Below, in pieces: positions 12,191 through 63,382 of a stretch of 64,000 nt of DNA; position 1 is the first letter of the stretch; every line of letters begins with the position of its first letter. A program made the translations under genes and the position numbers. The notes below the pieces were generated by a model that saw nothing but the letters and a program-made list of their open reading frames with translations, was not told the origin of the DNA and did not search any database. The stretch comes from Candidatus Poribacteria bacterium (lineage in GTDB: Bacteria; Poribacteria; WGA-4E; WGA-3G). The stretch is taken from contig OZ251518.1 in the NCBI GenBank assembly GCA_965242965.1, positions 4,000,001-4,064,000 of the forward strand, in the 5' to 3' direction.

Positions 12191-12618
12191 GAGGGGTTTC
12201 GTAAATCCCCGTAGGAGAGACCTCCTGGTCTCGATGCAATAGGGCGGCGCGCCTCCCAGGGCCGCGGCGGCAGAAGGTCCCCCTTTTACCCCTGTAGGTC
12301 AGGATCGCCTGATCCTGACCTGTTTGTGATCAGGCGAGCACAAACTACAGACAGGGAAACACACATCCTAACGATAGAGATCGCGGGGGACAGGCCCCCG
12401 CGCTACGGTAAAAAACGGTTCCCTTCACCGTAGGGCGAGGGCCTGTCCCTCGCCATCGCCCGCGCAATCCAATGATCGCGGGGGAAACCCGCTCGGATGC
12501 GCGTATGGCATCCGAGGGCCCCCGCGCTACGGGAACATCGAGACCGGGAGGTCTCGCCTACCGGAAATCGAGCCCCGAGGTCTCGCCTACCGAACACATC
12601 GAAATATGAAACATCCTC
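12191..12618. mobile_element. TIR-bounded REP cassette (MITE-like)
   Basis: GAGGGGTTTCGTA ... TATGAAACATCCTC ends; GTTAAGT duplicated on both flanks. Confidence 0.8.
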
Positions 12619-12695
12619 GTTAAGTTAGCGGCGAAGGCAGATGTGCTTCCGCCGCGGAAATCGGTTTTTTCCTTACCGATAAAATGATACTAAAT

Positions 12696-14081
12696 TCATT
12701 CCGAAATGTCAAGCGAAAATTCTGTCAACAACGCCGCCAACGGGTTGCAGAGAATCTCTTCGCTTTCGGCATCTATCAAGGAATGACACGTGCCATCTTT
12801 CAACTCATAAACGGCGACTTCGTCGGCAGAGAGCCAACACCGGTCTGGTGCAAGTTTGGCTATCCGGGCCGCCGCCGCCACCGAGGACTGCTTTTTTATC
12901 GCTGGTGCCGCACGCAACAAGGTTTGAAGCACCGTCAACACATACGGACTATGCGTTGTCAGCACGACTTGGGATTCCTCCGTGTTCAGCAGCAACGCGA
13001 TACACTCGATGAGTTCCTTCTGCGCGGTTGGATAGAGACTCGCCTCGGGTTCTTCGATTACCCGAAATACGGTGTCATTGTATATCACCGTGAAGAAGAT
13101 GTCTTGGAGGAGGCGGAGCGTGTTCTGTTCGCCGGCTGAAGCCGCGAGTAACGGGACCGAGCCTTCGCCGGTAGGCTGATTGAACAGCGATTTTTTGTCA
13201 TCTGCCGTTCCGTATGTGCCTTTGAGGATGCGCGCCATCTTTTCCATGAGGAATTCTGCGGCAGGCGCATCGAGTTCATCATCCTCATCATCCTCATCAT
13301 CCTCGCCTACCCGTTCGGCGAGGAGGGCATGGTAGTCTTGCTCGTTAAAGGTTTGCAAGAACTCCTCGTTTTTCTCCAAGAGCTGCGCCAGGAGGTAGCT
13401 CTGCACGGCGGGTGCAGGGTTGCGTTCTACATCGCGTTCAAAGAGCTCCCTTTTGATGCCGCCGTAGAAGACGCGTTTGAAGGCATCCGGATAGTGTGAG
13501 ATAATCTGCCGGCCTGCCGGGATATAGAGGTTTCTGAACTGCGTGCCGAAGAACCGTTCGGTGATGCCGCGAATCCCGGTCCCGAGGAAGATTTCAAGGA
13601 ACATCCGTTCACCGGGGGTAAACGTATTCGCTTGTTGGGAAGTGCCCTCCTTGAGAGACTTCTCCTTCGCCTTGCGCAGGCCAGCCTGATACTCCTTGTA
13701 AACTTCGTTCAGCTCGTCCGTGAGAGCGGGGAGCGTGATGTCGAGCTGCCCATCGTCCGTTAAAGCGAGGGTGACAGCACTTTCATCGGTATAGTGATAC
13801 GTAATCTCAAACGGACCGAGGTGGGTGAGTTCACCAAAAAAGAGGCGGAATTGCTGCGCAAAGTGGTGCTGGAACGTTGGAACGAGTTGCTGCTCGCCTT
13901 CCCAATTCACCTCCCAGAGCCATTTGCGGAGGGAGTAGGTGACGTTGTGGAAGAAGTAGAGCAGTTGCGCGAGCGTGCTTTTGCCACTGGCCTGTTCGCC
14001 GATGAGCACGACAAGTTTCTTATCCATGTCAAGCTCCGCCTCGCGGGTATGAATGAAATTTTTCACGATGAGTTTTGGCAT
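12696..14081 (-). CDS. ABC/SMC-type AAA ATPase (AAA_15/AAA_21-like)
   Basis: Walker A GEQASGKST, signature SAGEQ, Walker B IEEPE, H-loop TTHS. Confidence 0.85.
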   Translation of the reverse strand: MPKLIVKNFIHTREAELDMDKKLVVLIGEQASGKSTLAQLLYFFHNVTYSLRKWLWEVNWEGEQQLVPTFQHHFAQQFRLFFGELTHLGPFEITYHYTDESAVTLALTDDGQLDITLPALTDELNEVYKEYQAGLRKAKEKSLKEGTSQQANTFTPGERMFLEIFLGTGIRGITERFFGTQFRNLYIPAGRQIISHYPDAFKRVFYGGIKRELFERDVERNPAPAVQSYLLAQLLEKNEEFLQTFNEQDYHALLAERVGEDDEDDEDDELDAPAAEFLMEKMARILKGTYGTADDKKSLFNQPTGEGSVPLLAASAGEQNTLRLLQDIFFTVIYNDTVFRVIEEPEASLYPTAQKELIECIALLLNTEESQVVLTTHSPYVLTVLQTLLRAAPAIKKQSSVAAAARIAKLAPDRCWLSADEVAVYELKDGTCHSLIDAESEEILCNPLAALLTEFSLDISE

Positions 14082-14090
14082 TTTTACTTC

Positions 14091-15473
14091 CTATAAATCG
14101 TTAGTATCAATGAGACAGACACCCTCTTCGGCTGCGCGGTGTTTGAGTGCATCTGTCCAGCCGCTGACAGAAAATAGCAGATATCGGGGATGCTGCCGCC
14201 ATGCATCTGGGACTTTCTGCGCGTTTTCCATGAGGCGAATCAGGACATTTTCACCGACCGGGGTATGCCACCATTTGCACTCCCCGAACGAGTGGCTTCC
14301 GTCAAGATTTTCTGTCAACACGTCAATCTCAACGTCGGAACCCCAGTGCGCGCCCACTCGTTGAGGGGCAACCTTGAGTTTCTCGTCCCAATGAAAGGTG
14401 ACATATTGGCGGCAAATGTCTTCAAAAACCGTTCCCATGTATTGCGAAAGGTTGGGCGCGATGCGCTGCTGATAGACGAAATCGGCGTTCCCGGATTCGA
14501 TGAGACTCCGATTCGGTAGCACAAACCGAAACCAAAAATTGACGTAGTTGTCGGCAATTTTGTAGAGCCCTTTTCTGCTCTTTTGCGGGGCGCGTTCGGT
14601 GATAGATGTCTCCCGTTTCACCAGTTTCAAGTCTCGCAGCACCGTCAGATATTTATTCGCTTGTGTCGGTTCAAGTCCGACGCGCTGGGAAATCTCATTA
14701 AGTCGCGTCGCGCCGCCGGCGATGGCGTGCAGGAGGCTAGCATACGTGCGCGGTTCTCGGAGTTCCATCCGCAGCAGGAAGTTCACCTCATCGAACAGAT
14801 AACTTTGTGGCGCGAGCAGCGCGTCTTTGATGTTCTGTTCCAGCGTTTTCTCACTCGCGAATTGGTTGAGATACGCCGGAATCCCGCCGAGGATGCCGTA
14901 GGCGGTTATCTTCTCCTTCGCCGAGTAGGATGGCAAAAACCGGCCACTCTCGCGGTAAGAGAGCGGCAACAGCTGCTGCTGTCCCGTGCGGCGGCCATAC
15001 AGCGGTGAACGTTCCGCCAGCACTTCTCGCTCCATGAAACTCACCTGCGAACCGCACAGAATCAGGAAGAGTTTGCTGTGTCTCCCATGCAAATCCCAGA
15101 AACGTTGGATTTGCGATGGCAATGCTCCATTATCTTCGCATAGATACTGAAATTCGTCAAGCACTAAGATGAGGCGTTCCTGTTGTGCCTGCTGCGCGAA
15201 ATAGATGAGTGCCGATTCCCAGTCCGAAAACGTAAGGCTTTGGAGCAGCGCATCATCAATGACGTGTCGTGCTGCTTCGGTGAGCTGCTGCAGCTGGTCT
15301 GGTGCTTTCAACTGGCTGGCGAGAAAATAGATGCTCCGTTTGCCTTTGCAAAACTGCGTGAGGAGTTCGGTTTTTCCGACGCGTCTTCTGCCATACAGCA
15401 CGAAGAATTCGGCGGCATCTGAGTGCCACATCCTGTCTAATGCAGTTAATTCTTGTTCGCGATTGATGAACAT
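14091..15473 (-). CDS. Archaeal-type ATPase with wHTH and DUF234 (PD-(D/E)XK-like) C-terminus
   Basis: FINRE.EL, YGRRRVGKT, LDEFQ, CGS, DNY..FWFRF, EID...GECKW. Confidence 0.9.
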   Translation of the reverse strand: MFINREQELTALDRMWHSDAAEFFVLYGRRRVGKTELLTQFCKGKRSIYFLASQLKAPDQLQQLTEAARHVIDDALLQSLTFSDWESALIYFAQQAQQERLILVLDEFQYLCEDNGALPSQIQRFWDLHGRHSKLFLILCGSQVSFMEREVLAERSPLYGRRTGQQQLLPLSYRESGRFLPSYSAKEKITAYGILGGIPAYLNQFASEKTLEQNIKDALLAPQSYLFDEVNFLLRMELREPRTYASLLHAIAGGATRLNEISQRVGLEPTQANKYLTVLRDLKLVKRETSITERAPQKSRKGLYKIADNYVNFWFRFVLPNRSLIESGNADFVYQQRIAPNLSQYMGTVFEDICRQYVTFHWDEKLKVAPQRVGAHWGSDVEIDVLTENLDGSHSFGECKWWHTPVGENVLIRLMENAQKVPDAWRQHPRYLLFSVSGWTDALKHRAAEEGVCLIDTNDL

Positions 15474-15572
15474 AGGTTTGTCTCTCCGTTTACCGATCTG
15501 TTGGTGTGCAGCAGCTTGCCATCGGGTTGCATTCTGAATACTTTGGCTGCACTATGCGCGTCAACTTTGGTG

Positions 15573-15614
15573 TTATACTCTAAAGTATTATACGCTAAAG
15601 TATAATAAATGTCA
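15573..15614 (-). promoter_or_regulatory. sigma70 promoter overlapped by two 15-bp direct repeats (candidate operator)
   Basis: Minus strand TTGACA-17-TATAAT; TTATAC(T/G)CTAAAGTA at 15573 and 15588. Confidence 0.7.
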
Positions 15615-15649
15615 AGGTTCCGACTTTGTCTGAGACATTCAGCCCGATG

Positions 15650-15935
15650 TCTGGGTAGGAGGGGCATCCTTGTCCCGATATGCCCTCTTGGTAGGAGGAA
15701 CATCCTTGTCCCGATACCGATGTTTGGGTAGGAGGGACATCCTTGTCCCGATACGGCATTGCATCGAGACCAGGAGGTCTCTCCTACGGGGGAAAATCGA
15801 GACCGGGAGGTCTCTCCTACTGGGTATCAAGACCAGGAGGTCTCTCCTACTGGGTATCAAGACCAGGAGGGCTCTTCTACCGGCAATAGCGCGCGGGCTG
15901 TCCCCGCGCCGTTGCACGATTTATGAAACACCCTC
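15650..15935. repeat. REP cluster with right TIR only
   Basis: GTAGGAGGGACATCCTTGTCCCGAT x3, GAGACC..GGTCTCTCCTAC x4, ends TATGAAACACCCTC. Confidence 0.85.
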
Positions 15936-15937
15936 GG

Positions 15938-16450
15938 TTAAATTCCCATCCGAAGCGCGACAGCCGCCAGCAAAATCAGCAGCGAAACAACACCCATTAG
16001 ACTAGATACCACCGACATTTGCGAACGGAGCCGCTGAACATCCGACGGAAGTTCCTCCAGATTGATATCTAACTCCGAAATCGCGGCAGACATCTTCGGG
16101 CCGAAGACAAAGCCGTGCAACGCGGTAAGGATAATTAGCACGACGAAAAGCATTAGTTTGATAAACAGCGTGCGCATAAACGCGCCGATTAACTCCGGCG
16201 GCGCAGTAGTCGTCAGCACGCCCGACATGAAAATGTTAAAGATGCCGGTGAAGAATAGCACGCCGACACAACACCACACGACAGGCTCAAACCGTTTGCC
16301 TATCTCTGCTAAAATCTGAACCCGTTGGACAGGCGGAAGACTCTTTCTGAAATAGGGAACGATGACCAGGGCAATGATGAGGTTACCGCCGATCCAGACA
16401 ACCGCGGCGATGACGTGTAACCAAAGGATAAGGAGCGAGAGGAGTTCCAT
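15938..16450 (-). CDS. CopD/DUF4149-like membrane protein
   Basis: Start MELL at 16450; WLHVIAAVVWIGG, KL.L...LTALH, 4 TM segments. Confidence 0.75.
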   Translation of the reverse strand: MELLSLLILWLHVIAAVVWIGGNLIIALVIVPYFRKSLPPVQRVQILAEIGKRFEPVVWCCVGVLFFTGIFNIFMSGVLTTTAPPELIGAFMRTLFIKLMLFVVLIILTALHGFVFGPKMSAAISELDINLEELPSDVQRLRSQMSVVSSLMGVVSLLILLAAVALRMGI

Positions 16451-16554
16451 TGTATTGTGTTTCCTTTCTGAAGTTGAGAAGCCTTGTTCTGTAGTTCGGA
16501 CTCGCCTGAGCCCGAATGGGGCAAAATCGGACGAGACGCTACAGACGCTTGTTT

Positions 16555-18198
16555 TTAAGAATTTCCTATCTGTTGAATAACCTTCTCGGCGCGGGAAATT
16601 AACGCGTGCCGCTCCTCTGCCGGAAGCGGCGCGGGGGAAAACCGATAGTAATCGCACTGCGCCAAGATATCCACGACTTCCTGAATTGTGGCATCCGAGA
16701 GCCCCGCCTGCGCGCAAGTTTCGCGCACCGCATCAGGACTGGCAGAGCCCGCGACAAGCGAGATGCCTAACGTTTCACTGAGATATTCATATAAGACTTG
16801 GGCGATGGCATTCCCGAACGCCGTGGCGTTGTCTGCACGACTCTCCAAGATTTCCGTGAGCGTCGCGAGAGCCTCCTGTTCTGGCGGCACGTCGTGCTCT
16901 TCAATTTCCGCACGCGCGCTTGCCCGACGGCGATACCATAAATAGCCTCCCGCAACAAAACCAATAACGAGCACGGAGAGCCCTATTAAGAGCAACCACT
17001 TCCCCCACGCCACGCCATCGGGTTCAACCTCAACCAGCGCGCTCGGTTTCGGTGTCACGGTAAACGGAATCGGTGCTGTCTCTGTCGTTTGGTAGGTGCC
17101 GAGTTCCGGCGCGAAATAGGTATAAGAAATCGCAGGGATGCGCACTGTCCCGGCTTGCGACGGCACAAGCGCGTAGGCATAAACGTAACTCTGCTGCGTA
17201 GAACCGACACCGGGATTCGGACCGGATACGGTGACACCCGGTATCGCTGGAATCTGTGGCGCGGTGAGCGTCTGCATGTTGCCGCGTCCAGAGATACGCA
17301 CGGATAACGTGAGTCCTCTTCCCACTTCAACGCGAGTTTTGTCGATTTGCGCGGTGATTTGGTAGTCGCCGATAGCACCAGAAAACGGTGCGCTGTTGGA
17401 AGCTGCGTCTACCGGCAGAGCCGGCAGTGGCCGCACAGACAACGTGAGCGGTTTGGTTTTCAACGTTTTTGGAGCTCGGTTGAGCGGCAGCCTCAGTGAA
17501 GCGGGTTCAATGACAATACTGCCCGTTTTCTGTGGATAGAGCCGCCGCACCTCCGCCTGCACATGAAACGTTTGTCCGCGAATCCGCTTTGTCTCGTTCA
17601 GCGGCGCGGGGAGCTCTGTCACTAAAAAACCTGAAAAATCGGGAAGCGTGGCGACTGGCGATTCTCGCGTCGGCAACACGGTGGTGTAGAGATAGCGGAA
17701 CGTATACGTCACCTCCTGATTGAGATAGGGGTTTGAAGGCGTTACCTCCGCCTCCACTTGATGAACCCCATCAGTGGAGGTATCCCGATACGTGTCTTCA
17801 CCACTCACCCGAACAGTGCCGGGATTCGCGAAATAGGGAGTGCCTTGATATGAGAAACGGACATCCGAAAGCGCGAAATCACCTATCTCCTGTGGAATCA
17901 GTTCATAATACCACGCCTTGGAGACAGCGATTTTATCGCCTTCTAGCCGCGGCGTGGTGGAAGAACGCAGCGGCACGGCGAGAAACGCAGGCAGAAAATT
18001 GAAGATTGGCGCATCAATATGTTCAATGAATGTCTTCCCGGAGAGCACAAGCTCCAAAGTCGCTTTCTCGCTAAATTGGATGTCCCGCGGTTGGACTACG
18101 GCGGAAACATCAATTTCTGCCGCACCGATGCCCACGAGAAAAAATAACGCGAAAGACGTGGTGATGAGTTTTTGATGATGCGTTGAGAAACGTTGCAT
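16555..18198 (-). CDS. batD: BatD-family protein
   Basis: Signal peptide, repeated Ig-like units (LYPQKTG..IEP, GAIGDY, ISGRGN, LVPSQAG..IP), C-terminal TM and DYYRFSP. Confidence 0.8.
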   Translation of the reverse strand: MQRFSTHHQKLITTSFALFFLVGIGAAEIDVSAVVQPRDIQFSEKATLELVLSGKTFIEHIDAPIFNFLPAFLAVPLRSSTTPRLEGDKIAVSKAWYYELIPQEIGDFALSDVRFSYQGTPYFANPGTVRVSGEDTYRDTSTDGVHQVEAEVTPSNPYLNQEVTYTFRYLYTTVLPTRESPVATLPDFSGFLVTELPAPLNETKRIRGQTFHVQAEVRRLYPQKTGSIVIEPASLRLPLNRAPKTLKTKPLTLSVRPLPALPVDAASNSAPFSGAIGDYQITAQIDKTRVEVGRGLTLSVRISGRGNMQTLTAPQIPAIPGVTVSGPNPGVGSTQQSYVYAYALVPSQAGTVRIPAISYTYFAPELGTYQTTETAPIPFTVTPKPSALVEVEPDGVAWGKWLLLIGLSVLVIGFVAGGYLWYRRRASARAEIEEHDVPPEQEALATLTEILESRADNATAFGNAIAQVLYEYLSETLGISLVAGSASPDAVRETCAQAGLSDATIQEVVDILAQCDYYRFSPAPLPAEERHALISRAEKVIQQIGNS

Positions 18199-18246
18199 AT
18201 TTTTTCAGGTATCTGACAGATAGAGATGTCCGTCCTTACGGCACGA

Positions 18247-18849
18247 TTACCAATCCTTCTCCCGGCGATAGCCGCTTTTGAATTGCCGTTGCAACGACTT
18301 GCGCCGGATGCTGTTTTCCTTTTCGCGCAGCTGCGCCAATAAACGGCGTGTCTCAGATTCGGAAACGCTCGGGTTCGGGCGTTCCTGCCGCTCAGTTTTT
18401 TGTTGCCCACCTACTTTCGGCTGATTTTGTTGCTGCTGGAGTGCCAATGCAAGGTTGTGCTTGGCATCCGCGTCGGTTGGTGTTAATTGCAGCGCGTTCC
18501 GATAAGCCTCAATTGCTTTGTCAAGTTCGCCTGATTGAAACTGCGCGTTGCCGAGGTTATAGTAGGTTGCGGCGCGCGGTTCGCCTGTCAGAAGCGATGC
18601 CTGAAACGCCGCCGCCGCCATTTCAAATTGCCCCTGTTTGTAGAGCGCGGTACCGAGGTTATAGTGCGCGAGCGGATTATCGGGCTTCTGGCGCACCGCC
18701 TGTTGGAAGGCGTTCATTGCCGCGTCGTAATTGCCTCGCCGATACGCCACGTTACCAGACTGCATCTCGCGATGCCACGTCCCGAACCATCCGCCGAAGA
18801 CAATAGCGGATATGATGATAAGTGAGAGAGTGAGGGTGCGTTTCCACAT
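18247..18849 (-). CDS. BatC-like TPR protein
   Basis: YNLGTALY and YNLGNAQF TPRs, Q-rich linker, C-terminal KDW; start MWKR at 18849. Confidence 0.8.
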   Translation of the reverse strand: MWKRTLTLSLIIISAIVFGGWFGTWHREMQSGNVAYRRGNYDAAMNAFQQAVRQKPDNPLAHYNLGTALYKQGQFEMAAAAFQASLLTGEPRAATYYNLGNAQFQSGELDKAIEAYRNALQLTPTDADAKHNLALALQQQQNQPKVGGQQKTERQERPNPSVSESETRRLLAQLREKENSIRRKSLQRQFKSGYRREKDW

Positions 18850-18913
18850 GGTATCTATTATATACGATAACGCTGTGGATTGCAAGAAATTGTGCAAACA
18901 GGCTGGAACAAAT

Positions 18914-19441
18914 GAGAGTGTTTCATATCTCGATGGCTTCCCGGTAGGCGAGACCTCCTGGTCTCGATGTTCCCGTAGCGCGGGGGCCTATCCCCCGTGA
19001 GTGCTCAAGAACCGTTTTTTTTATCGTAGCGCGGGGGCCTGTCCCCCGCGATCGTCCATTGTCAAGTTATGTTTTTAGGGCCTTTAGGTCCTACATGTCT
19101 ATAGCAACACGTGTCGGCCCGTTTTCAAGGTCCTTTAGGTCCTTAATAAAAAACACGCGGACTTGGCAAAACCTATTAAGGACCTAAAGGACCTTAGGAT
19201 TCTTCGCGGGTGCGCGGGCTATAGACATTAAGGTCCTACGGACCTAAGAGACGTTTTTTCAAGGGGGGGGCTGCCGCCGCTGTCCCGGTAGGCGCGCCGC
19301 CCTATTGCATCGAGACCGGGAGGTCTCTCCTACCGGCAGAAATCGGGACAGGTAGGAGGGACATCCTTGTCCCGATACGCACAGGAACAAAACGCATCGA
19401 GACCGGGAGGTTTCTCCTACACGGTTTTATGAAACACCCTG
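18914..19441. mobile_element. TIR-bounded REP cassette
   Basis: GAGAGTGTTTCATA ... TATGAAACACCCTG; AACAAAT on both flanks. Confidence 0.8.
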
Positions 19442-19546
19442 AAACAAATACCAGAATTCTCCATCAATAAGCGCGATTTGAAATCGCGCAGGCGGGATGC
19501 GTTCTACGTGAGTTCTCTCAAAAAAAGCGGACAAAAAAGGCGGACA

Positions 19547-19579
19547 AAAAAAGGCGGCTTGGGTAAACAAGCCGCCTTC
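19547..19579 (-). terminator. Intrinsic terminator
   Basis: AAGGCGGCTTG...CAAGCCGCCTT hairpin with U-tract on the minus strand. Confidence 0.7.
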
Positions 19580-19594
19580 TGGAAAGCGAACGCG

Positions 19595-20425
19595 CTATTT
19601 GCGCCGGATATCAGCCCACGTCGTCGTCAACTTCCCTTTCGGTTCAACCGGGGTAAGCGGCGTGATTTCATCAAAGAAACTCTGCTTATCGGTTGCATCC
19701 TTGGGGTAAATGGTGACAGCGTCGTGCGTGGCATCGTCAAAGTGCAGGTTGAAATAGGCGGAGCCGCCGCTTTCACCGCACCGGTAGACAAGGACGTTCG
19801 CGCCTTTTTGCAACTCAACTTCAACGTTATAGTCGACTTGTTGCGCTGCCCCTGTCCAGGCGGAGTTGTTATACCATTTTTCACCGTTAATCCAGATGTG
19901 CGCGTGGTCATCGTGTGCGGGCGACATCACGGAAGTCATGTCGCTCGGTGCATCGATAACAATAACAGCGTAGGTGTCAATGTTATCGGCAGGGCCGCCG
20001 CGGTTCATATTGTCGCCATCGGCCGGATCGATCTCAAAGACGGTCCAGGCGCGTGTGCCGCCGTGGTCATCGCCCCAGACGACATCGGTAGTCTGCGTGA
20101 GAAGCAAGCCTTCCAGCGTGGAGAGGGAGGCATCGGTGATTTTACCGCCGGTGCCTTCATCCATGAAATCAACGAGGGCCGAGACCGCGAATCCGCCGTT
20201 ATTTTCGTAGTTACCATCGGGCCCATACCACTTGGTAATCCACGTTTCAACATCGGCGTGGTCTTCGTTGAGTGCGGCCTCTGTCGGATTTTCCAATTGC
20301 GCGTCTTCGGCGAGCGGGCCGCCGGTAATGTTCACAACGCCTTGCGCGGCGGCGAAGTGCGAGAAACTGACTGCAACGGCGAAAAGCATCACCATTGCGA
20401 GCGTCAAACGAGAAAATGTGTTCAT
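19595..20425 (-). CDS. Secreted beta-sandwich (PA14-like) protein with C-terminal VEPxGKLTTxW motif, paralog 1
   Basis: Signal peptide; HDDHAHIWINGE, VELQKGANVL; C-terminal VEPKGKLTTTWADIR. Confidence 0.8.
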   Translation of the reverse strand: MNTFSRLTLAMVMLFAVAVSFSHFAAAQGVVNITGGPLAEDAQLENPTEAALNEDHADVETWITKWYGPDGNYENNGGFAVSALVDFMDEGTGGKITDASLSTLEGLLLTQTTDVVWGDDHGGTRAWTVFEIDPADGDNMNRGGPADNIDTYAVIVIDAPSDMTSVMSPAHDDHAHIWINGEKWYNNSAWTGAAQQVDYNVEVELQKGANVLVYRCGESGGSAYFNLHFDDATHDAVTIYPKDATDKQSFFDEITPLTPVEPKGKLTTTWADIRRK

Positions 20426-20615
20426 TTGAACTCCTTCTATTATTTACGGTAAATTTTGCGCGGGAACAATTTTGTTGCCGCGCGTCTAACAAGACAGAAC
20501 TGACGCGAAAAATGTATACGTTCCGCGTCTGTCCTGCCATTTGATGACATAATTATAGTTTTTCAACACAAATTAGTCAAGAAAAAACGGATTTTCCGTG
20601 CGAACGGATTCGCGG

Positions 20616-21446
20616 TTAGCGATTGCGCTTAATAGCCGCCCACCTTGTTGTCAACTTTCCGGCAGGTTCCACCGGAAGAATGCCGGCGACTTCGTCGAAG
20701 AAGCTGTCCTGGTTCCGCGCTTTGTCGGGATAGATTTTGGCGACTTTGTGCGTGTTGTCGTCAAAGTGGAGGTTCATATACGCGGAACCTCCGCTTTCGC
20801 CGCACCGGTAAAGCACGACATTCGCGCCTTTTTGCAGGTCGACCTCGATATTGTAGTCAACTTCCTGCGCGGCACCTGTCCAAGCGGAGTTGTTATACCA
20901 CTTTTCACCGTTGATCCAGATTTGCGCGTAGTCATCGTGCGCGGGCGACATCACGGCTTTCATAGCCTGGGGCGCAGCCACGACGACGATACCGTAAGTA
21001 TCAATGTTATCGGCGGGCCCGCCGCGGTTCATATTGTCGCCGTTCGCCGGTTCAAGTTCAAAGACGGTCCACTCGCGGGTGCCCCCGTTCTGCTTATCCC
21101 ACTCCATTTTAATATTTTGGGTCTTCTGCAAACCGGCGGCGGTGGAGAGATCAACCTGTGTCAACTTGCCGTTAGTGCCTTCGTCAATGAGGTCCTTCGG
21201 CGCGGAGGCGGGGAATCCACCGTTGTTTTCGTAGTTACCGTCAGGCCCATACCACTTGGTAATCCACGTCTTCTCCCCGGCATGGCTTTCGTTCAGCGGA
21301 GCTTCTCCCGGGTTTTTCAGCCAATCGGCCTCTTTTATTGGGCCGTCTTTGATGTTGACTTTCTGCGCGAACGCAAGGTGCGAGCTGCCCGCAGCCAGCG
21401 CGAAAATTAGCGCGATTGCGAGCAGAAAGGAACAAAATTTTTTCAT
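20616..21446 (-). CDS. Secreted beta-sandwich protein, paralog 2
   Basis: High similarity to its neighbours; VEPAGKLTTRWAAIK. Confidence 0.85.
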   Translation of the reverse strand: MKKFCSFLLAIALIFALAAGSSHLAFAQKVNIKDGPIKEADWLKNPGEAPLNESHAGEKTWITKWYGPDGNYENNGGFPASAPKDLIDEGTNGKLTQVDLSTAAGLQKTQNIKMEWDKQNGGTREWTVFELEPANGDNMNRGGPADNIDTYGIVVVAAPQAMKAVMSPAHDDYAQIWINGEKWYNNSAWTGAAQEVDYNIEVDLQKGANVVLYRCGESGGSAYMNLHFDDNTHKVAKIYPDKARNQDSFFDEVAGILPVEPAGKLTTRWAAIKRNR

Positions 21447-21606
21447 AAAGGTTTTTCTCCTTGTCGGTTATGTGCTTCCGATACATGTCTGTCATTCAGG
21501 AACGATGCGCCTGAACAGTCAAAATCGGGAGCTCTTAAACTACAGGTGGGGTATGAGTTGTCAGGACAGATAGTTAACGACATCTGTCCTGACATCCGAT
21601 TCTCGG

Positions 21607-22440
21607 TTAGCGGTTGCGCTTAATATCGCCCCAGATTGTCGTCAATTTTCCGGCAGGCTCAACGGGTAGGACACCTGCAACTTCCCTGAAGAAACTGGCC
21701 TGGTCCTTCGCCTTGTCCGGATAGATGTCGACAACTTTGTCGGTTGCATCGTCAAAATGCAGGTTCATATACGCGTGCCCGCCGGATTCCCCGCACCGAT
21801 AGAGTAAAACGTTCGCGCCTTTTTGCAACTGAACTTCAACGTTGAAGTCGACTTGTTGCGCGGCGCCGGTCCAGCGGGAATTGTTATACCACTTTTCGCC
21901 GTTGATCCAAATTTGCGCGTGATCATCGTGCGCGGGGGACATGACGGCTTTCATGTCCTTGGGTGCATCGATGACACAGATGGCATAGGTATCCATGTTA
22001 TCGGCTGGGCCGTCCCTGTTCATGTGGTGCGCGTCCGCGGGGTCCAGTTCAAAGACGGTCCATTTGCGCGCGCCGCCGTTTGCGCCTTTCCAACCGATAT
22101 CGACAGTCTGCGTCAGTTGCAGCCCTTCAACGGTAGAGAGGGAGACCTGTGTCAACTTGCCGTTGGTGCCTTCGTCAATGAGGTCCTTCGGTGCGGAGGC
22201 ACCGAATCCGCCGTTGTTTTCGTAGTTCCCATCGGGGCCGTACCACTTGGTGATCCACGTCTTCTCACCGGAATGGTCTTCGTTCAGTTCGGCTTCCGCC
22301 GGGTCCTTCAGCCAATCGGCCTCTTTTATCGGGCCGTCTTTGATGTTGACCTTCTGCGCGAACGCAGAGTCGATTTGACCCCCCCCGATCAGGGCGAAAA
22401 CCAGCATCGCTGCGAGGGTAAACAAATAAAATTTTTTCAT
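21607..22440 (-). CDS. Secreted beta-sandwich protein, paralog 3
   Basis: Start MKKFY at 22440 after AGGAGG; VEPAGKLTTIWGDIK. Confidence 0.85.
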   Translation of the reverse strand: MKKFYLFTLAAMLVFALIGGGQIDSAFAQKVNIKDGPIKEADWLKDPAEAELNEDHSGEKTWITKWYGPDGNYENNGGFGASAPKDLIDEGTNGKLTQVSLSTVEGLQLTQTVDIGWKGANGGARKWTVFELDPADAHHMNRDGPADNMDTYAICVIDAPKDMKAVMSPAHDDHAQIWINGEKWYNNSRWTGAAQQVDFNVEVQLQKGANVLLYRCGESGGHAYMNLHFDDATDKVVDIYPDKAKDQASFFREVAGVLPVEPAGKLTTIWGDIKRNR

Positions 22441-22646
22441 TCTGAACTTGCCTCCTGAGTTGGTAAGACAATTTTTCTTCAACTTTATGCCGTATTATGG
22501 CAAACTTCCAAAAAATTGTCAAGGAAAAATTCAAAAAAGGAATTGCTAATTAGCAATTGCAAATAATGATACAATTTTGTCAAAAAATTGTCAATAAGAT
22601 TTTTTGTCTATCCAGAGACATTCAGTATTCTGCTGCCCAGTTAAGG

Positions 22647-22925
22647 GAGGGTGTTTCATATCTCGATGACTTCCCGGTAGGAGAGACCTCCCGGTCTCGA
22701 TGTTCCCGTAGCGCGGGGGCCCTCGGATGCCACACGCGCATCCGAGCGGGTTTCCCCGCGTTGTCTCAAGCACCGTTTTTTTTATCGTAGCGCGGGGGCC
22801 TGTCCCCCGCGATCGTTGGGGTGCGCGGACGATGGCGAGGGACAGGCTCGCCCTACGATGAAGGGGGGCTTTCTGCCACAGCGGCCCCGGGTACTGCATC
22901 GAGACCGGGAGGGCTCTCCTACGGT
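22647..22925. repeat. REP cluster with left TIR
   Basis: Starts GAGGGTGTTTCATA; contains A, B and C type REPs. Confidence 0.85.
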
Positions 22926-22976
22926 AGAACGCGGGTGGGTGTATCAACGTTCGGTGTTTTCCGTTTGACGCGAGCG

Positions 22977-24017: not shown

Positions 24018-24339
24018 CTGTAGACTCCTCAGGGAATAGAGAAATCTGCCCTTACGTTTGCGGCACTTTGCGTGTGCGTTGCCAAACCTTTCGTATTACG
24101 GTTAATTATACCACAAAAAGTGTTGGATGTCAAATTTTTGGAAAAATCCGTGAAAAATCTGCATCGTGGATTAATCTATCACATTTCGCTGTTTTTTCTC
24201 AAGTTTCCGATATTCTTTTTCTGTACCCACGTCAACAGAGGAAAACTAAAGATTCTGACATTTTCTAGATTTTTCTTGACAAAATGTAAAAAAAATGTTA
24301 CGATATTAAAATACGTTAAAAAACAACAGGACTAACAAA

Positions 24340-26527: not shown

Positions 26528-26529
26528 TT

Positions 26530-26907
26530 GAGGGTGTTTCATAACTCAAGAAACCGTCCGGTTACCGTAGCGCGGGGGCCTGTCCCCCGTGATCGTCCCG
26601 TAGGAGAGCCCTCCCGGTCTCGATGCAACTCTAAACCTTATTAAGGTCCTACGGACCTTGATAGGGTGCGGCACGTTTTTCTATAGACATGTAGGTCCTA
26701 CGGACCTAAAAGAGCGGTTCGGTGGACCGCAGCATGGCGAGGGACAGGCCCTCGCCCTACGGTGAAAGGGGACCGTTCTGCGGCCAAGAAACCGTCCGGT
26801 TACCGTAGCGCGGGGGCCTGTCCCCCGCGATCGTCCCTACCAAGAGGGCTCGGTAGTCGCCTGCTCCAGGGGCGATAACTACCGAAACGGAGTTATGAAA
26901 CACCCTC
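26530..26907. mobile_element. TIR-bounded REP cassette with 8-bp target duplication
   Basis: 18-bp perfect TIR GAGGGTGTTTCATAACTC; GCTTAATT at 26522-29 and 26908-15. Confidence 0.9.
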
Positions 26908-26927
26908 GCTTAATTGAGGTGGCATCC

Positions 26928-27542: not shown

Positions 27543-27551
27543 GGTGGCGGC

Positions 27552-27935: not shown

Positions 27936-27988
27936 TTGAGGAAGAAATTGAGACCGGGAGGTCTCGCCTACAGCGTTCGGTTTGTAAT

Positions 27989-29353: not shown

Positions 29354-29357
29354 ATTC

Positions 29358-29664
29358 GGTAGGCGAGACCTCCTGCGTCTCGATGTGCCCGTAGCGCGGG
29401 GGCCCTCGGATGCCATACGCGCATCCGAGCGGGTTTCCCCCGCGAGCTCCATCGTCACGATGTGTGTTTCACCCTCTGTAGTTTGTGATCGCCTGATCAC
29501 AAACAGGTCAGGATCAGGCGATCCTGACCTACAGGGGTGAGGCGGTCTGACAGCCAAACGCATGGCGAGGGACAGGCCCTCGCCCTACGATGAAGGGACG
29601 GCGTTTTTTTCACCGCAGCGCGGGGCATGTCACCGCGACACCAAGCGATTTATGAAACCTTCTC
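29358..29664. repeat. REP cluster with right TIR
   Basis: REP modules; ends TATGAAACCTTCTC. Confidence 0.85.
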
Positions 29665-29730
29665 AGCTAAATCCTTCTGGGTTAAAAAATAAAAATTTGA
29701 CTTTTTTTGTTAAATGTGGTAAAATTAATT

Positions 29731-32698: not shown

Positions 32699-33570
32699 GG
32701 GGGTGTTTCATAAATCCGTTTTCCCCGGTAGGAGAGACCTCCCGGTCTCGATGTTCCCGCCGGTCTCGATGTTCCCGTAGCGCGGGAGCCTGTCCCCCGC
32801 GAGCGTTGAATTGCGCGAGGCATGGCGAGGGGAACCCGCTCGGATGCGCGTGTGGCATCCGAGGGCCCAAGCCCTACGATAAAGTACCGCTTCTTTCCCG
32901 TAGCGCGGGGCCTGTCCCCCGCGATCTCCATCGTCACGATGCGTCTTAGGTCCTTTAGGACCTACATGTCTATAGAAAAACGTATCGGCACCTATCAAGG
33001 TCCGTAGGACCTTAATAGGAAAACGCGCGGCACATCAAGACACATTAAGGACCTAAAGGACCTTAAAGCTCTTCGCAGCCTGACGTGCTATAGACATTAA
33101 GGTCCTACGGACCTAAAGAGACGTTTTTTTCGTAGCGCGAGGCATGGCGAGGGACAGGCCCTCGCCCTACGGTGAAAAGGGGCCGTTCTGCGGCCAAGAA
33201 ACCGTCCGGTTACCGTAGCGCGGGGGCCTGTCCCCCGCGACCGTCCCGTAGGAGAGCCCTCCCGGTCTCGATGCAACCTAAAAGAGCGGTTCGGTGGACC
33301 ACAGCATGGCGAGGGGAACCCTCTCGCATGCGCGTGTGGCATGCGAGGGCCCAAGCCCTATGGTGAAAAGGGGGCCGTGCTGCGGCCAAAAAACCGTCCG
33401 GTTACCGTAGCGCGGGGGCCTGTCCCCCGCGATCGCCATCGTCACGATGCGTCTTAGGTCCTACAGCCCTAATAGCACGCGCGCCGTTTTTTTTCGTTCT
33501 CCCCTCTCTGTAGTTTGTGATCGCCTGATCACAAACGGGTCAAGATCGGGCGATCTTGACCTACAGGGGT
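32699..33570. repeat. Largest REP cluster, left TIR only
   Basis: GGGGGTGTTTCATA followed by many modules of at least 5 types. Confidence 0.9.
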
Positions 33571-37671: not shown

Positions 37672-38739
37672 ATGAACATCAAACCAATGCATGTCGTCGG
37701 CATCCTCATGATACTGGCCGTCGGCATCTGTGCAATCAGCGTGCTTTTCCTCACGTCGGAAGAAAAAGCACCGGTGGTGACATACAAAACCACCGTTCCG
37801 AAATCTCAGGCTGCCGAGTCTGCCGACAGCCGCAGTGAAGCGACGTTAAAAGAACGGGCAGAAACCTCCAAGGAACGTATCTTGGCGAGTATGCAGATGC
37901 ACGGGATGGAGGCTGATCCCGCTCGTCTACAAGCGATGGAGAGAGCCTTAGCATCTCCGGCCTATCTTGAATATCTGAGAAAGCAAGATGCTGTCTTCCC
38001 AGGGTTTAATCTAGGCCTCTGGTGGGACTTCTTGGAATCTCAAGGGGTTTCTTCATCCGGAAGGCAGTTGCAGGAAGAAAATTTCCGCGAGCACTTTCCA
38101 ACCGGCGACTACGCCGATTATGAACCGATGATGCGGCACAACCTCGCCGAACTTTTTCTAGAGACAGAGCCACCCGAAGATCCAACGGATAAACGGGAGA
38201 TGCGACAGTATACCCTCGCTGTCATGGGCATGTTTCGTAAGGATTGGGCGAACAAGATTTGGATGCGCGGATACTTCAACGGCTACGATGGCGATGTCGC
38301 CTGGGCTGACACTATCCGTCAGAACGCGGAAAGCATCGTGGCAGCGGGACCCGCAGCAGTGACAGATGCCTCATCCCTGTTGACAGATCCGGCAGTCACT
38401 ACCGTGACGAGTCTGACAGATGTTGCTGAAGAGCCTCAAGACGCGCAACCGGCGCAGCGCAATGAAAACACGCTGTTTGAAGAGGCAGCGCAGCAGTCAC
38501 AGAACCTGGCAGACGTTGAGGGAAAACCGACAGAACTTTTCACCCTGCCTGAGCTCCCTACTGAGGGGAGTCTTGAAAAGGCACTGCGGCAACAAGTGTC
38601 ACCGGAACGGTTCAACCGCGCTATTGATATCTTGAATCGCTACGGACCTCGGGAGGGCATCCGCCGCCTTAAGGAAGCAGACCCGGGTGCTGCGGCACAG
38701 GTTGAACGCTTTCTTCAGCGAAAACAAGAGGATAACTGA
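37672..38739 (+). CDS. Family A protein, copy 2
   Basis: Shared family motifs; TGA stop overlaps the TIR at 38738. Confidence 0.85.
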   Translation: MNIKPMHVVGILMILAVGICAISVLFLTSEEKAPVVTYKTTVPKSQAAESADSRSEATLKERAETSKERILASMQMHGMEADPARLQAMERALASPAYLEYLRKQDAVFPGFNLGLWWDFLESQGVSSSGRQLQEENFREHFPTGDYADYEPMMRHNLAELFLETEPPEDPTDKREMRQYTLAVMGMFRKDWANKIWMRGYFNGYDGDVAWADTIRQNAESIVAAGPAAVTDASSLLTDPAVTTVTSLTDVAEEPQDAQPAQRNENTLFEEAAQQSQNLADVEGKPTELFTLPELPTEGSLEKALRQQVSPERFNRAIDILNRYGPREGIRRLKEADPGAAAQVERFLQRKQEDN

Positions 38740-39275
38740 GGGTGTTTCATATTTCGATGTGTTCGGTAGGAGAGCCCTCGGGGCTCGATGTTCCCGTAGC
38801 GCGGGGGCCTGTCCCCCGCGATCTCCATCGTCTCAATGTGCCCGTAGCGCGGGGTCCTGTCCCCCGCGCGCGTTGGATTCCGCGAGCGATGGCGAGGGAA
38901 ACCCGCTCGCATGCGCGTGTGGCATCCGAGGGCCCTCGCCCTACGGTGAGGGGGGGGCATTTTTTATCGTAGCGCGGGGGCCTGTCCCCCGCGATCTCCA
39001 TCGGCATGATGTGTGTTTCCGCTTCTGTAGTTTGTGATCGCCTGATCACAAACGGGTCAGGATCAGGCGATCCTGACTTACAGGGCCTGGCACACGCACG
39101 ATGGCGAGGGAAACCCGCGATCGCCATCGTCAAAGTATGTTTTTAAGTCCTTTAGCACCTACATGTCTATCGCACCACGTGTCGTGCCGTTTTCAAGGGC
39201 CTTTAGGTCCTTGATAAAAAAACGCGCGGCCCTAGCAAAAACTATTAAGGTGAGCGAAGACCTGTCCCTCGCGCA
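38738..39275. repeat. REP cluster with left TIR
   Basis: GAGGGTGTTTCATA followed by REP modules. Confidence 0.85.
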
Positions 39276-40211: not shown

Positions 40212-40503
40212 GAGGGTGTTTCATAAATCGCTCAACAAGGGGCCGTTTTTTTCACCGTAGCGCGGGGGCCTGTCCCCCGCGAGCGTTGGGGTGTGCGAAC
40301 GATGACGAGGGACAGGCCCTCGCCCTACGGTGACCGAGCCGCCCTCCTCTGTAGGTGGAGATCGTCTGAAGCTCTGGCATGTTTGCCAAGCGATCTTGAC
40401 CCGTTCGGGAGCAGGTGCTCCCGAACTACGGTCTCTCGCATGCGCGATGCATCGAGACCAGGAGGTCTCTCCTACCGGGGAAAACGATTTATGAAACACC
40501 CTC
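40212..40503. mobile_element. TIR-bounded REP cassette inserted in an ECF promoter spacer
   Basis: Perfect 14-bp TIRs; no target duplication visible. Confidence 0.8.
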
Positions 40504-43084: not shown

Positions 43085-43416
43085 GAGGGTTTTCATAATT
43101 CGATGCGTTCGGTAGGAGAGCCCTCCGGGTCTTGATGTCTTCCCGTAGCGCGGTTGCCTGTCCCCCGCGAACTCCATCGTCCCGATGTGTGTTTCCGCCG
43201 CTGTAGTTTGTGATCGCCTGATCACAAACAGGTCAGGATCAGGCGATCCTGACTTACAGGGGTGATGCGTTCTGACACCAAAACGCATGGCGAGGGGAAC
43301 CCGCTCGCATGCGCGTGTGGCATCCGAGGGCCCTCGCCCTACGGTGAGGGAGGGCGTTTTTTCTCGTAGCGCGGGGGCATGTCACCGCGACGTTGAACGA
43401 TTTATGAAACACCCTC
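43085..43416. mobile_element. TIR-bounded REP cassette
   Basis: GAGGGTTTTCATA ... TATGAAACACCCTC. Confidence 0.8.
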
Positions 43417-55382: not shown

Positions 55383-55424
55383 ACAAAATTTGAAAAAAAT
55401 GACTTTTTCTCAATTTAAGGCTTT

Positions 55425-57047: not shown

Positions 57048-57321
57048 GAGGGTGTTTCATAAATCGTTCAACGTCGCGGGGACAGGCCCCGCGCTACGGT
57101 GAAAAAACGCCTCCCCTTTACGTAGGGCGAGGGCCTGTCCCTCGCCATGCGTTTTGGTGTCAGACCGCATCATCCCTGTAGGTCAAGATCGCCTGATCTT
57201 GACCCGTTTTACCGCCCGCCCACGGGCGAGCCCGAACTACAGCGATGGGCCCGATGCCTGCCGGGATTCGCCTGCCTTCCAAGGCAGGATAAATACCGAA
57301 ACGGAGTTATGAAACCCCCTC
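57048..57321. mobile_element. TIR-bounded REP cassette with 11-bp target duplication
   Basis: ACTCTTAAAAT at 57037-47 and 57322-32. Confidence 0.9.
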
Positions 57322-58764: not shown

Positions 58765-58834
58765 ACACGCTAACACGCACCAGGTAGGTGCGGTTTGAAA
58801 CCGCACCTACCGCGGATTAAAGGAGGATTAAACC

Positions 58835-60130: not shown

Positions 60131-60133
60131 ACG

Positions 60134-61585: not shown

Positions 61586-61649
61586 GCACGAACCTTGGTA
61601 GGCGCGGTTGCAAACCGCGCCTACTGCGAAACTCAAGGAGAATTAAAAT

Positions 61650-63086
61650 ATGAAACGCTTAAACCTCACGCACACCCTCGCGCTCCTCATCGGAATTGCG
61701 GCGATGTGCTTTCAGTGCATCGCGGCGGAAGACACGGCAGAGATGGTAACCTTCGCCGGCCGCGTTGTTGATGTGGAAGGAAATCCTATGCCAGGATTTG
61801 TTTTCGCTATTCAGGGTGCCAACATGTATCAACAGCAGGTAGACATAACCACTCGCTATGCAATGAGTGACCCGGGCGTGGAACAAGACTCAATGCTACC
61901 TCCTGTTTTCGTGCCTGTTGAAACCGATGAAGCGGGAACTTTCTCTATCACCGAAGGGATTGCCGGGAAGGTTCAATTGGTGGTGCGACACAATATCGCT
62001 GAACCTCCGAAAGTCGGAACATTTGACAAGAAACCTGCGCATGCGATTGTCTCCATCGACATCGGCGGGATAATCTTCTATCCGAACCCTGGGCACCGAT
62101 ATTCGTCCCCCACTGGCCTGACGTTTTCTCTCAAACCGGGCGCGCGGTTTGAGAACGTTGAAGTGACGGTGCAGCCACGGACGCGCGTCCGAGCCAAAAT
62201 CGTTTTTAAGGATGGCACGCCGCTTGCCAACGCGCAGGTTATAGCAGAAACTGCCAATCGGGATTTAAGGGGGCTCACACGCGAGAGTTCAAAGGGAGCA
62301 AGGCGGACAGATGCGGAGGGTTACATTGCAGAATACCCGAAAGAGTCTAGCATCTTCACGATATTAGTGACATATCAGGGGCTTGCCTCCACATCGGAGA
62401 CAATTACTGTCAAGGCGGGAGAACGACATGAGATAGTTTTGACGTTTGACAGCGAACCGATTGCCGACATGCCTGTGGAACAGCCGCCCGTTGAGTTGGA
62501 AATCGAGCCGCCCGGCGCGCCCAAAACAGCGGAGATACCACTCGAAGACTTGCCGCCACCCGCAGCACTGCACACCCACGGAACAGATATAAATCAGGTG
62601 TGGAACGAGAAGGCGGTGTGGGTAGTCAATCCTGCAAATGGACATGCTTACAAGCAGGTTTATTGCGGAAATTGGGATGAGGCGGAATCGTTCGCTATTG
62701 CTGAAGAAGCACATCTTGTCTCAATTAACGATGAGGCAGAACAGAAGTGGTTGGAGGGAGCCTTTAAGACAGATGGGTTTCGGCATTTTTGGATTGGCCT
62801 CACCGATGTGGAGAAAGAGGGTGAATGGCGATGGACGAGCGGCGAGCCTGTCACCTATACTAATTGGGCATCCGCAGCACCTTTTCCCGATGAACTTGAT
62901 GCATCAGAGAAAGACTATGTCACGATGGGATTTCTCGGCGGGAAGTGGGTGGCAGTAGGTGAACTAGGTGAAACGGGACCGTATATCCATCCTCATTTCG
63001 CGATTCTTGAGAGAGATGGCTTGCTTTCCAAAACCCCCGTTAAAGCGACGGAAGAGGGGAAGTCATCGGGGATAGAGGATAGGTAA
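61650..63086 (+). CDS. Secreted C-type lectin protein, paralog 4
   Basis: Same architecture; first ~120 bp nearly identical to paralog 2. Confidence 0.85.
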   Translation: MKRLNLTHTLALLIGIAAMCFQCIAAEDTAEMVTFAGRVVDVEGNPMPGFVFAIQGANMYQQQVDITTRYAMSDPGVEQDSMLPPVFVPVETDEAGTFSITEGIAGKVQLVVRHNIAEPPKVGTFDKKPAHAIVSIDIGGIIFYPNPGHRYSSPTGLTFSLKPGARFENVEVTVQPRTRVRAKIVFKDGTPLANAQVIAETANRDLRGLTRESSKGARRTDAEGYIAEYPKESSIFTILVTYQGLASTSETITVKAGERHEIVLTFDSEPIADMPVEQPPVELEIEPPGAPKTAEIPLEDLPPPAALHTHGTDINQVWNEKAVWVVNPANGHAYKQVYCGNWDEAESFAIAEEAHLVSINDEAEQKWLEGAFKTDGFRHFWIGLTDVEKEGEWRWTSGEPVTYTNWASAAPFPDELDASEKDYVTMGFLGGKWVAVGELGETGPYIHPHFAILERDGLLSKTPVKATEEGKSSGIEDR

Positions 63087-63089
63087 TTT

Positions 63090-63382
63090 GAGGGTGTTTC
63101 ATATTTCGATGCACACCCGTAGGAGAGACCTCCTGGTCTCGATGTTCCGGTAGCGCGGGGGCCTGTCCCCCGCGAGTTCAATCGGCCCGATGTGTGTTTC
63201 CCCTTCTGTAGTTTGTGATCGCCTGATCACAAACAGGTCAGGATCAGGCGATCCTGACCTACAGAGCCTGGCTCGCGAGCGATGGCGAGGGACAGGCCCT
63301 CGCCCTACGTGAAGGGGAGACGTTTTTTCACCGTAGCGCGGGGCCTGTCCTCGCGACGTTGAGCGATTTATGAAACACCCTC
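63090..63382. mobile_element. TIR-bounded REP cassette with 9-bp target duplication
   Basis: AGGTAATTT at 63081-89 and 63383-91. Confidence 0.9.

Follow-up and report, generated by a model that had tools for sequence, protein, structure and literature searches.

In the genome of a Candidatus Poribacteria bacterium (G000; 5.66 Mb plus 38 kb, in two contigs), sequences of the repetitive extragenic palindromic (REP) type are ferried inside short elements that share their ends and target duplication with an autonomous insertion sequence (IS) encoding a DDE transposase. We describe these elements in a stretch of 64,000 nucleotides (G000:C1:4000001-4064000; hereafter the window), in the genome as a whole and in two sister species, G001 and G002, which with G000 make up its genus (3 genomes) within a taxonomic family set of 112 genomes. 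An element bounded by two inverted copies of the end is here called a shell, and an end without a partner is called a solo end. We consider it likely that the shells are a large family of non-autonomous DDE elements, that is, MITEs (miniature transposable elements with inverted repeats), built from REP DNA and subject to the ordinary turnover of REP arrays.

Shared ends and target duplications

A preliminary description of the window had reported a terminal inverted repeat (TIR) shared by seven two-ended and five one-ended elements. All of these copies were recovered: the 14-base end GAGGGTGTTTCATA matches the window 16 times at up to 2 mismatches, against 0.39 matches expected, and the maximum in shuffled sequence was 2, with 0 of 100 shuffles reaching 16. 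The genome-wide scan for ends that the description had called for returned 1026 ends in G000. Of the 363 adjacent plus/minus pairs, 298 span less than 1 kb, and 430 of the ends are solo. The 298 two-ended elements range in size from 69 to 948 bp and together occupy 121 kb, or 2.1% of the genome.

Exact flanking repeats of at least 7 bp, mostly 8 bp, were found around 102 of the 298 elements, whereas a control in which the flanks of the same elements were shifted by 25 bp gave none of even 5 bp or more (0/298). With up to one mismatch allowed, an 8-bp duplication flanks 168/298 elements, compared with 1/298 in the control. The duplicated sites are AT-rich, with the logo A-a-T-T-w-A-a-T, and the rate of duplication is flat across element length (13/27 at 650-1000 bp).

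On the inner side, 368 of the 430 solo ends have a REP module no more than about 120 bp away; on the outer side, 51 do. Because the solo ends are polar in this way, with REPs mostly inward, they are truncated elements rather than stray motifs. A search for degenerate partners of the solo ends (up to 4 edits) was non-discriminating, with hits for 354/430 solo ends and 335/430 random segments. Three subterminal end types, T1, T2 and T3, can be distinguished, and the pairings among the shells include T1-T2 (82), T2-T3 (63), T1-T3 (23) and T3-T3 (14), plus others. The shells have no transposase gene: the transposase match in G000 is limited to the 52-aa remnant described below, and a 1094-bp copy of the element contains only spurious open reading frames (ORFs) that read through the REPs.

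An autonomous IS with the same ends in sister genera

One relative, G022, has seven identical copies of a 1107-bp IS that bears the shell ends, each with one ORF of 332-353 aa and an 8-bp duplication. Exact copies of the 15-mer end number 396 in G000 and 14 in G022, the latter as seven pairs spaced by 1107 bp; most of the 40 relatives that were searched have 0-3. The TIRs of the IS are 17 bp long (GAGGGTGTTTCATAAAT), and the shells match them over 14-17 bases. Of the 53 fetched loci that were long enough to judge, 24 measure 1106-1124 bp and have identical 17-bp ends, 2 have a variant end and 27 have no such end, the last being mostly relatives at 48% identity or less. Judged by eye, exact 8-bp duplications surround 12 of the 24 same-ended copies and are A/T-rich like those of the shells. 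The proposal in the preliminary description that the shells are of DDE type is thus borne out by ends and an 8-bp duplication held in common with an autonomous 1.1-kb IS in sister genera.

The IS protein matches the Pfam family DDE_Tnp_1_3 above cut-off (39 bits) and also passes for the DDE_Tnp_1 domain. Its best NCBIfam match is IS982 (NF033520), at 55 bits against a cut-off of 130, with IS1182, IS5 and IS4 scoring lower; because the IS982 score is far under its cut-off, we do not assign the IS to a family. A family name was also sought by a plasmid search, which returned one weak match only, annotated merely as 'transposase'.

At E<=1e-20 the transposase is found in 50 of the 112 family genomes, comprising 17/40 in one genus, 33/65 in another and 0/3 in the genus of G000. 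The bearers of the IS are Candidatus Poribacteria, and relatives at 39-41% occur in Chloroflexota. All that G000 retains of the transposase is a 52-aa fragment containing a TGA stop (G000:C1:2371347-2371499). A perfect end is found 234 bp away (G000:C1:2371347-2371746), with about 400 bp missing between the two, and the fragment is therefore a decayed copy of the IS. The IS, intact only in sister Poribacteria genera, has been lost from G000, and most shell copies there are probably now stranded.

On the basis of these sequence comparisons, the shell ends are those of the 1.1-kb IS, with its 17-bp repeats and its single predicted DDE transposase of the IS4/IS5/IS982 superfamily. The IS produces an 8-bp duplication at A-T-rich A.TTAA.T sites, and the shells may have been mobilised in trans by the cognate transposase. 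The shells have the features by which MITEs are recognised, namely ends identical to those of an IS, a duplication of the same length, empty sites and a small size without a transposase gene. REPs, and the REP doublets forming hairpins that are known as REPINs, have neither TIRs nor target duplication. Because the shells have both, they are not REPINs, although their contents are REPs.

Empty sites and shared sites in the sister species

Empty sites had been set beforehand as a check on transposition, and they were found in both sister species, on one metagenome contig and at a paralogous locus of G000. The element at window positions 26530-26907 is missing from G001, in which the flanks are 92-94% identical and their high-scoring segment pairs (HSPs) overlap by 15 bp, and from G002; a 2191-nt metagenome contig from run X5 likewise joins position 26520 directly to 26907. 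The site of 12191-12618 is empty in G002, with flanking HSPs that overlap by 18 bp. The element at 18914-19441 is missing from the orthologous spacer in both G001 and G002, and the whole block of the 22647 element is absent from G001. Within G000, the element at C1:2879606-2879856 has an empty paralogous site; a search of the same genome for paralogous filled sites with a differing interior gave one paralogous pair only, of the empty type.

At up to 1 mismatch, the end occurs 900 times in G000, 8 times in G001 and once in G002. Two of the five end-bearing loci of G001 are empty in G000 and three are filled there, and the lone end of G002 has no counterpart in G000. Because ends occur in G001 and G002 without a counterpart in G000, the shell family has been active in all three species, and has expanded explosively only in G000. 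The three loci that are filled in both G001 and G000 are as follows.

G001 C102:11326-12188: the identical duplication AGTTAATT and the right 110 bp are shared with G000; the interior and the left end type differ.
G001 C102:14122-14384: the right junction is shared with G000; the interior is unrelated and the left end is absent.
G001 C102:21093: in G000 the end and the first module are gone; an interior stretch is shared, and there is in addition a local duplication.

The differing interiors at these three shared sites suggest that change took place after insertion.

The sequencing evidence consisted of four runs, available as short-read contigs that stop at each element. The many joints seen in these contigs are repeat cross-matches and were not used; one contig bridges an empty site. 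In run X8, the region 11500-30000 of the window is apparently represented by two strains, with window-identical contigs at a depth of about 90 and contigs of about 0.5-1% divergence at a depth of about 260.

It could be argued that no DDE element is involved, and that the 14-mer is another motif of the kind found in bacterial interspersed mosaic elements (BIMEs) or that the variety of interiors is an artefact of assembly. The REP arrays are indeed BIME-like, being mosaics with conserved spacing, and short-read contigs collapse at each copy. However, the 8-bp duplications lie far above control, the empty sites are precise, an IS with identical ends exists, and in the two-contig assembly of G000 the individual copies are flanked by unique DNA. 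We therefore regard this explanation as highly improbable.

Shells ferry REPs and can carry a gene

Clustering of the 298 elements at 90% coverage and 80% identity gave clusters of 57, 6, 5 and 3 members, seven pairs and 213 singletons. The 57-member master form is about 266 bp long and contains four REPs, laid out as an end with its own hairpin, an F-E' doublet, a spacer, A', a spacer, B and the second end. A copy of this layout was found in G001, including the loop insert described below. Because the layout is present in 57 copies and also in G001, the four REPs are an inherited part of the master element. REPs are thus ferried inside DDE-type shells, as the preliminary description had supposed, with at least 57 copies of the four-REP master in G000, one in G001 and a 2.9-kb version that carries a gene.

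Within the master family, the REP cores match the consensus at 0.91-0.96, compared with 0.77-0.94 (mostly 0.81-0.88) for the backbone, and the better preservation of the cores reflects either selection or homogenisation. At one fixed position of the master form, the REP has the alleles GGGAGC/GCTCCC, GGGATC/GATCCC and TGTGATC/GATCACA, in which both stem arms change together, and these alleles occur in every combination with two variants of the E stem. The pattern looks like conversion or recurrent compensated change.

The gene-bearing element (G000:C1:54311-57212) is 2902 bp long, with perfect ends, an 8-bp duplication (ATTTAAGT) and REP arrays inside both ends. Its cargo is a 588-aa ORF with ankyrin and dockerin regions; it encodes no transposase, and its site is empty in G001. 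An end-less paralogue of the ankyrin gene with similar REP flanks is present at C1:1709822-1712343. Among pairs of ends 1-12 kb apart, 5/576 have an exact 8-bp duplication, compared with 17/8264 in a 20-200-kb control, which corresponds to about 1 by chance; of these larger pairs, the 2902-bp element is the only one confirmed by an empty site. Three further pairs, of 3-5.5 kb (C1:188873-192792, 1154352-1157375 and 1404312-1409765), have exact 8-bp repeats, with about one such pair to be expected by chance.

We put forward tentatively, as a doubtful but possible extension, that the shells are general cargo carriers. Each of them has REPs with thousands of identical copies elsewhere, and REP-flanked DNA, such as another array or a gene like the ankyrin-repeat gene of C1:54311-57212, could therefore be copied in by way of the REPs and then be moved by the DDE transposase. 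The copying could be carried out by a REP-associated tyrosine transposase (RAYT) or by REP-guided template switching, and REPs could gain from it a spread that is independent of RAYT.

The REP pool and its RAYT

The modules A to E named in the preliminary description are genuine GTAG hairpins. A GTAG tag with a perfect hairpin occurs at 6307 sites in G000, whereas the reversed tag gives 636; fuzzy matching assigns 8543 modules to 11 types, and the two commonest REP 25-mers are present in 1534 and 1416 identical copies. A GTAG tag joined to a GC-rich hairpin at high copy number is characteristic of REPs. Doublets recur: A>B< pairs are found 701 times, separated by 22 or 10 nt, and E>G< or E>F< pairs 424 times, separated by 1 nt. 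REP mosaics of this sort, in which orientation alternates and spacer length is fixed, are characteristic of BIMEs.

Two-ended shells contain 973 of the 6307 perfect REPs and the other 5334 (85%) lie outside them. Similarly, 1373 of the 2029 REP arrays in G000 have no end within 200 bp, in agreement with the earlier observation that modules also occur without TIRs. The exact REP B 25-mer is genus-specific, with 1552 copies in G000, 155 in G001, 66 in G002 and none in 38 other relatives. REPs that have no TIR also differ among G000, G001 and G002 at an orthologous spacer, and turnover is therefore not specific to shells.

The sole intact RAYT of G000 (G000:C1:3147526-3147930; 154 aa) scores 120 bits against NF047646, for which the cut-off is 80, and aligns to the E. 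coli TnpA(REP) protein (PDB 4ER8) over the HUH (HLH) and tyrosine (Y..NP) motifs. Arrays of F-type REPs lie on both sides of it (G000:C1:3146083-3149418) and are dense enough that mechanically called ORFs run through them. As had been noted, both enzymes are outside the window, the RAYT at this locus and the DDE transposase as the trace at C1:2371347-2371499. An IS200/IS605-type element is present at G000:C1:3123891-3127127, with a broken Y1 transposase (two TGA stops) and an intact 408-aa TnpB-like ORF.

The preliminary description had inferred a two-tier element, in which shells mobilised by a DDE enzyme ferry or attract REP arrays and these are then reshuffled. In a dedicated system of this kind, co-adapted DDE shells would be the chief vehicle of REPs and the RAYT would load and rearrange the REPs inside them. 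Several observations fit such a system. REPs are denser in shells, which hold 973/6307 perfect REPs in 2.1% of the genome, a comparison made with the whole genome rather than with intergenic DNA; solo ends are REP-adjacent on the inward side in 368/430 cases and on the outward side in 51; the REP cores of the master form are better conserved than its backbone; G000 has about 100x the ends of G001 and 10x the REP B copies; and comparison with C102:21093 indicates that some G000 arrays may be shells that lack one end. However, most REPs and most arrays have no end near them, and 85% of perfect REPs are shell-less. REPs are abundant in G001 and G002, which have only 8 and 1 ends, and REPs without TIRs vary as well. 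A look for RAYT genes flanked by each REP type had been suggested; one RAYT does exist, but its flanks hold F-type REPs only, and no result ties a change inside a shell to it. A dedicated two-tier system is therefore unlikely.

Diversity and proposed turnover of shell interiors

The 298 elements have 218 different REP architectures, and the 168 with a duplication have 129. A hairpin insert of about 29-31 nt (TCGGATGC-N7-GCATCCGA) is found in fixed orientation in the loops of A/B-type REPs; of its 575 copies, 509 are in a REP context and 142 are inside shells. Three copies lie in the window, at 22727-22757, 43283-43312 and 29404-29433. In the master form the insert occurs at two fixed positions, in REP A of some copies and in REP B of others. 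A second loop insert, of 24-27 nt, is found in E-type REPs (window ~40350-40380). Gains of REP units and of A'-B doublets also occur, and an internal tandem repeat with a period of at least 40 is present in 20/298 elements, including 15 of the 105 that measure at least 450 bp. Spacers are more similar within an array (0.65-0.77) than between arrays (0.41-0.64).

An alternative source of this variety would be a set of static subfamilies, in which many masters each transposed a few times without any change after insertion, the sites shared with G001 being hot targets. The existence of few end types with preferred pairings (T1-T2 82, T2-T3 63), the multi-copy clusters of 57, 6, 5 and 3, the single layout common to three window copies (43085, 63090 and 29664), the strong target consensus and the rarity of recent block transfer are all consistent with it. 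However, 213/298 elements are singletons, 3/5 of the G001 loci are filled at the identical junction in G000, and one of these shared sites has a common interior stretch together with a local duplication. The same loop insert, moreover, is in REP A or in REP B depending on the master copy. We consider purely static subfamilies to be quite improbable.

The reading that we favour, of a MITE family built from REP DNA with ordinary turnover of its arrays, can be set out as follows. The shell body, which is unrelated to the IS, is assembled from the GTAG-tagged REP hairpins of a genus-wide pool, and anything between two ends moves as a unit, whether the four-REP master, a longer REP composite or the 2.9-kb ankyrin block. 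Diversity would have two sources. One would be the existence of several subfamilies that differ in their subterminal end types. The other would be turnover after insertion, in which small hairpins are placed in REP loops, REP units and doublets come and go, tandem duplication occurs in some cases and blocks are replaced at REP boundaries; identical turnover would act on the approximately 1400 end-less arrays. The changes may be driven by the one RAYT, by template switching at hairpins or by recombination of identical REPs with one another. What has been shown is that the ends, the duplication and the IS exist, that sites can be empty, that REPs are ferried and that interiors differ at shared sites; we infer that these differences arose in place, and we infer their driver. 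Of the earlier statement that REPs within shells are reshuffled, what holds is that interiors differ at the 3 sites shared with G001, where repeated hits on the same target are also possible.

Several points weigh against the favoured reading. Independent insertions into a preferred target could account for the three shared sites, given the strong target consensus and the frequency of the right-end type that is found at two of them. The run contigs end at every element, and metagenome contigs confirm no interior independently. For 60/298 pairs the flanks differ at 4 or more of 8 positions and thus show no duplication. No intact cognate transposase was found in G000, and current mobility is unproven. 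F-type REPs alone flank the RAYT, and no cognate RAYT for A, B, C, D or E REPs was found in G000, in which A, B and C are far commoner than F. Simple mechanisms also explain little of the variety. Tandem duplication, considered as the main source of long interiors, accounts for only 20/298 elements. Recent copying of blocks between arrays gave 66 blocks (at least 100 bp, at least 97%) linking 1389 arrays, the longest of 225 bp; because near-identical shared blocks are rare, no recent transfer of large blocks is seen.

Elements of the window

The elements of the window are listed below, with positions counted from its first letter; strand is given for the one-ended copies.

12191..12618: two-ended, 428 bp; left end one base short; 7-bp duplication GTTAAGT; interior C> E> G< B< A> C<.
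15647..15935, minus strand: one-ended; perfect end at 15922-15935; interior D D D C' C' C' C'; left end absent.
18914..19441: two-ended, 528 bp; C> B> B>, ~170-bp GGTCC/GGACC palindrome, C< D> C<; duplication AACAAAT.
22647..22925, plus strand: one-ended; left end perfect, followed by C> B(loop insert)> B> A< C<; right end absent.
26530..26907: two-ended, 378 bp; perfect ends; 8-bp duplication GCTTAATT; B> C>, half palindrome, A< B>.
29358..29664, minus strand: one-ended, of the C B G E' A' B subfamily; degenerate right end; left end absent.
32699..33570 (approximate extent), plus strand: one-ended; left end with 1 mismatch, followed by a long REP array; right end absent.
38738..39275 (approximate extent), plus strand: one-ended; left end perfect, followed by C B B B G E' and a truncated palindrome.
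40212..40503: two-ended, 292 bp; perfect ends; duplication not visible; B> A<, E-type REP with loop insert, F< C<.
43085..43416: two-ended, 332 bp; left end one base short; C B G E' A'(loop insert) B; duplication not visible.
57048..57321: two-ended, 274-bp copy of the commonest form, reversed, in the 57-member cluster; 11-bp flanking direct repeat ACTCTTAAAAT.
63090..63382: two-ended, 293 bp; perfect ends; 9-bp duplication AGGTAATTT; layout C B G E' A' B.

Five of these elements (18914, 26530, 40212, 57048 and 63090) have both ends within 2 mismatches, and no partner ends were found for the copies at 15935, 22647, 32699 and 38738. The statement that each interior is different does not hold: the elements at 43085 and 63090 and the truncated copy at 29664 share the layout C B G E' A' B, and that at 57048 is the commonest form in the genome. 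The window contains 90 REP modules in 31 arrays that measure 4.1 kb from REP to REP. The earlier tally of about 7 kb of modules is correct in order of magnitude when the element ends are added.

Synteny with G002 breaks precisely at the one-ended element 15647..15935 (region 15485-15936): the flank on its left maps near G002:C1:4239540 and the one on its right near 4387605, about 148 kb apart. Truncated copies of this kind may be markers of rearrangements. The short motif GAGACATTCAG occurs at 15630-15650 and at 22610-22630, in either case at the inner edge of a one-ended element or immediately outside it, and may be part of another repeat.

Relation to known repeat families

IS-derived MITEs such as Correia/NEMIS, Nezha, RUP and Chunjie (PMC3184786, PMC10969869) are likewise short, non-coding and high in copy number. 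They too have terminal inverted repeats that match an IS, a duplication of fixed length, empty sites and frequent truncated copies. Unlike these MITEs, the shells have a REP array as their interior, in 218 layouts among 298 copies of 69-948 bp, rather than a deleted IS or a single conserved sequence; they are also present at a high copy number (1026 ends) in a host genome from which the partner IS is missing.

With REPs, BIMEs, REPINs and their RAYTs, as treated by Nunvar 2010 (PMC2817692), Bertels and Rainey 2011 (PMC3116915) and Di Nocera 2013 (PMC3733652), the shell contents share the GTAG tag, the GC-rich hairpin, the inverted doublets, the clustering into mosaic arrays with regular spacing and the presence of a single RAYT amid its own REPs. 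Such elements have no TIRs or target duplication, whereas here an IS end lies near a third of the arrays, and here a cognate RAYT is present for the F type only.

In Anabaena variabilis, GTAG-15 dimers are regularly enclosed by a long inverted repeat (Di Nocera 2013, PMC3733652). This is the nearest published mention of REPs in a palindromic shell. It is a brief remark, read as insertion of REPs into a target palindrome, and gives no IS partner, duplication, or variable or gene cargo.

Other elements combine conserved end modules with a variable number of internal repeats and a wide range of sizes: BrickBuilt of Porphyromonas gingivalis, which is MITE-like with a variable internal minisatellite (PMC4596501), BOX of S. 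pneumoniae, at 67-637 bp, and DTC84 of a clam (PMC3879986). The internal units of these elements are one element-specific tandem repeat, whereas those of the shells come from several families of independently mobile, genome-wide REPs.

Mobile insertion cassettes consist of IS-like ends that enclose passenger genes without a transposase. The 2902-bp copy resembles them in its perfect ends, 8-bp duplication, passenger gene and lack of a transposase, and differs in that it is a single confirmed case and its passenger is flanked internally by REP arrays.

In the open-access literature searched, we found no description of an IS-derived MITE with a variable REP-array body. The preliminary statement that no family like this had been described was nonetheless too strong, as published parallels exist (PMC3733652, PMC4596501 and BOX). 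The shells are not a new kind of system. They combine two known kinds of selfish DNA, in a form that is unusually abundant and variable and is tractable.

Implications

Small bacterial repeats of the REP and MITE classes are usually considered apart from each other, each class with its own enzyme. REPs that ride in DDE-type elements have a second route of spread. The differing REP-filled shells at sites shared across species offer a natural system for measuring change in REP arrays, and the partner IS, kept in sister genera and lost here, makes the burst of shells datable and their ends testable with a known transposase. If the shells do act as general cargo carriers, this would amount to functional cross-talk of HUH and DDE systems. 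Ankyrin-repeat genes have been linked to sponge symbiosis, and the presence of an ankyrin-gene copy in this sponge-symbiont genome means that the shells may also move host-interaction genes.

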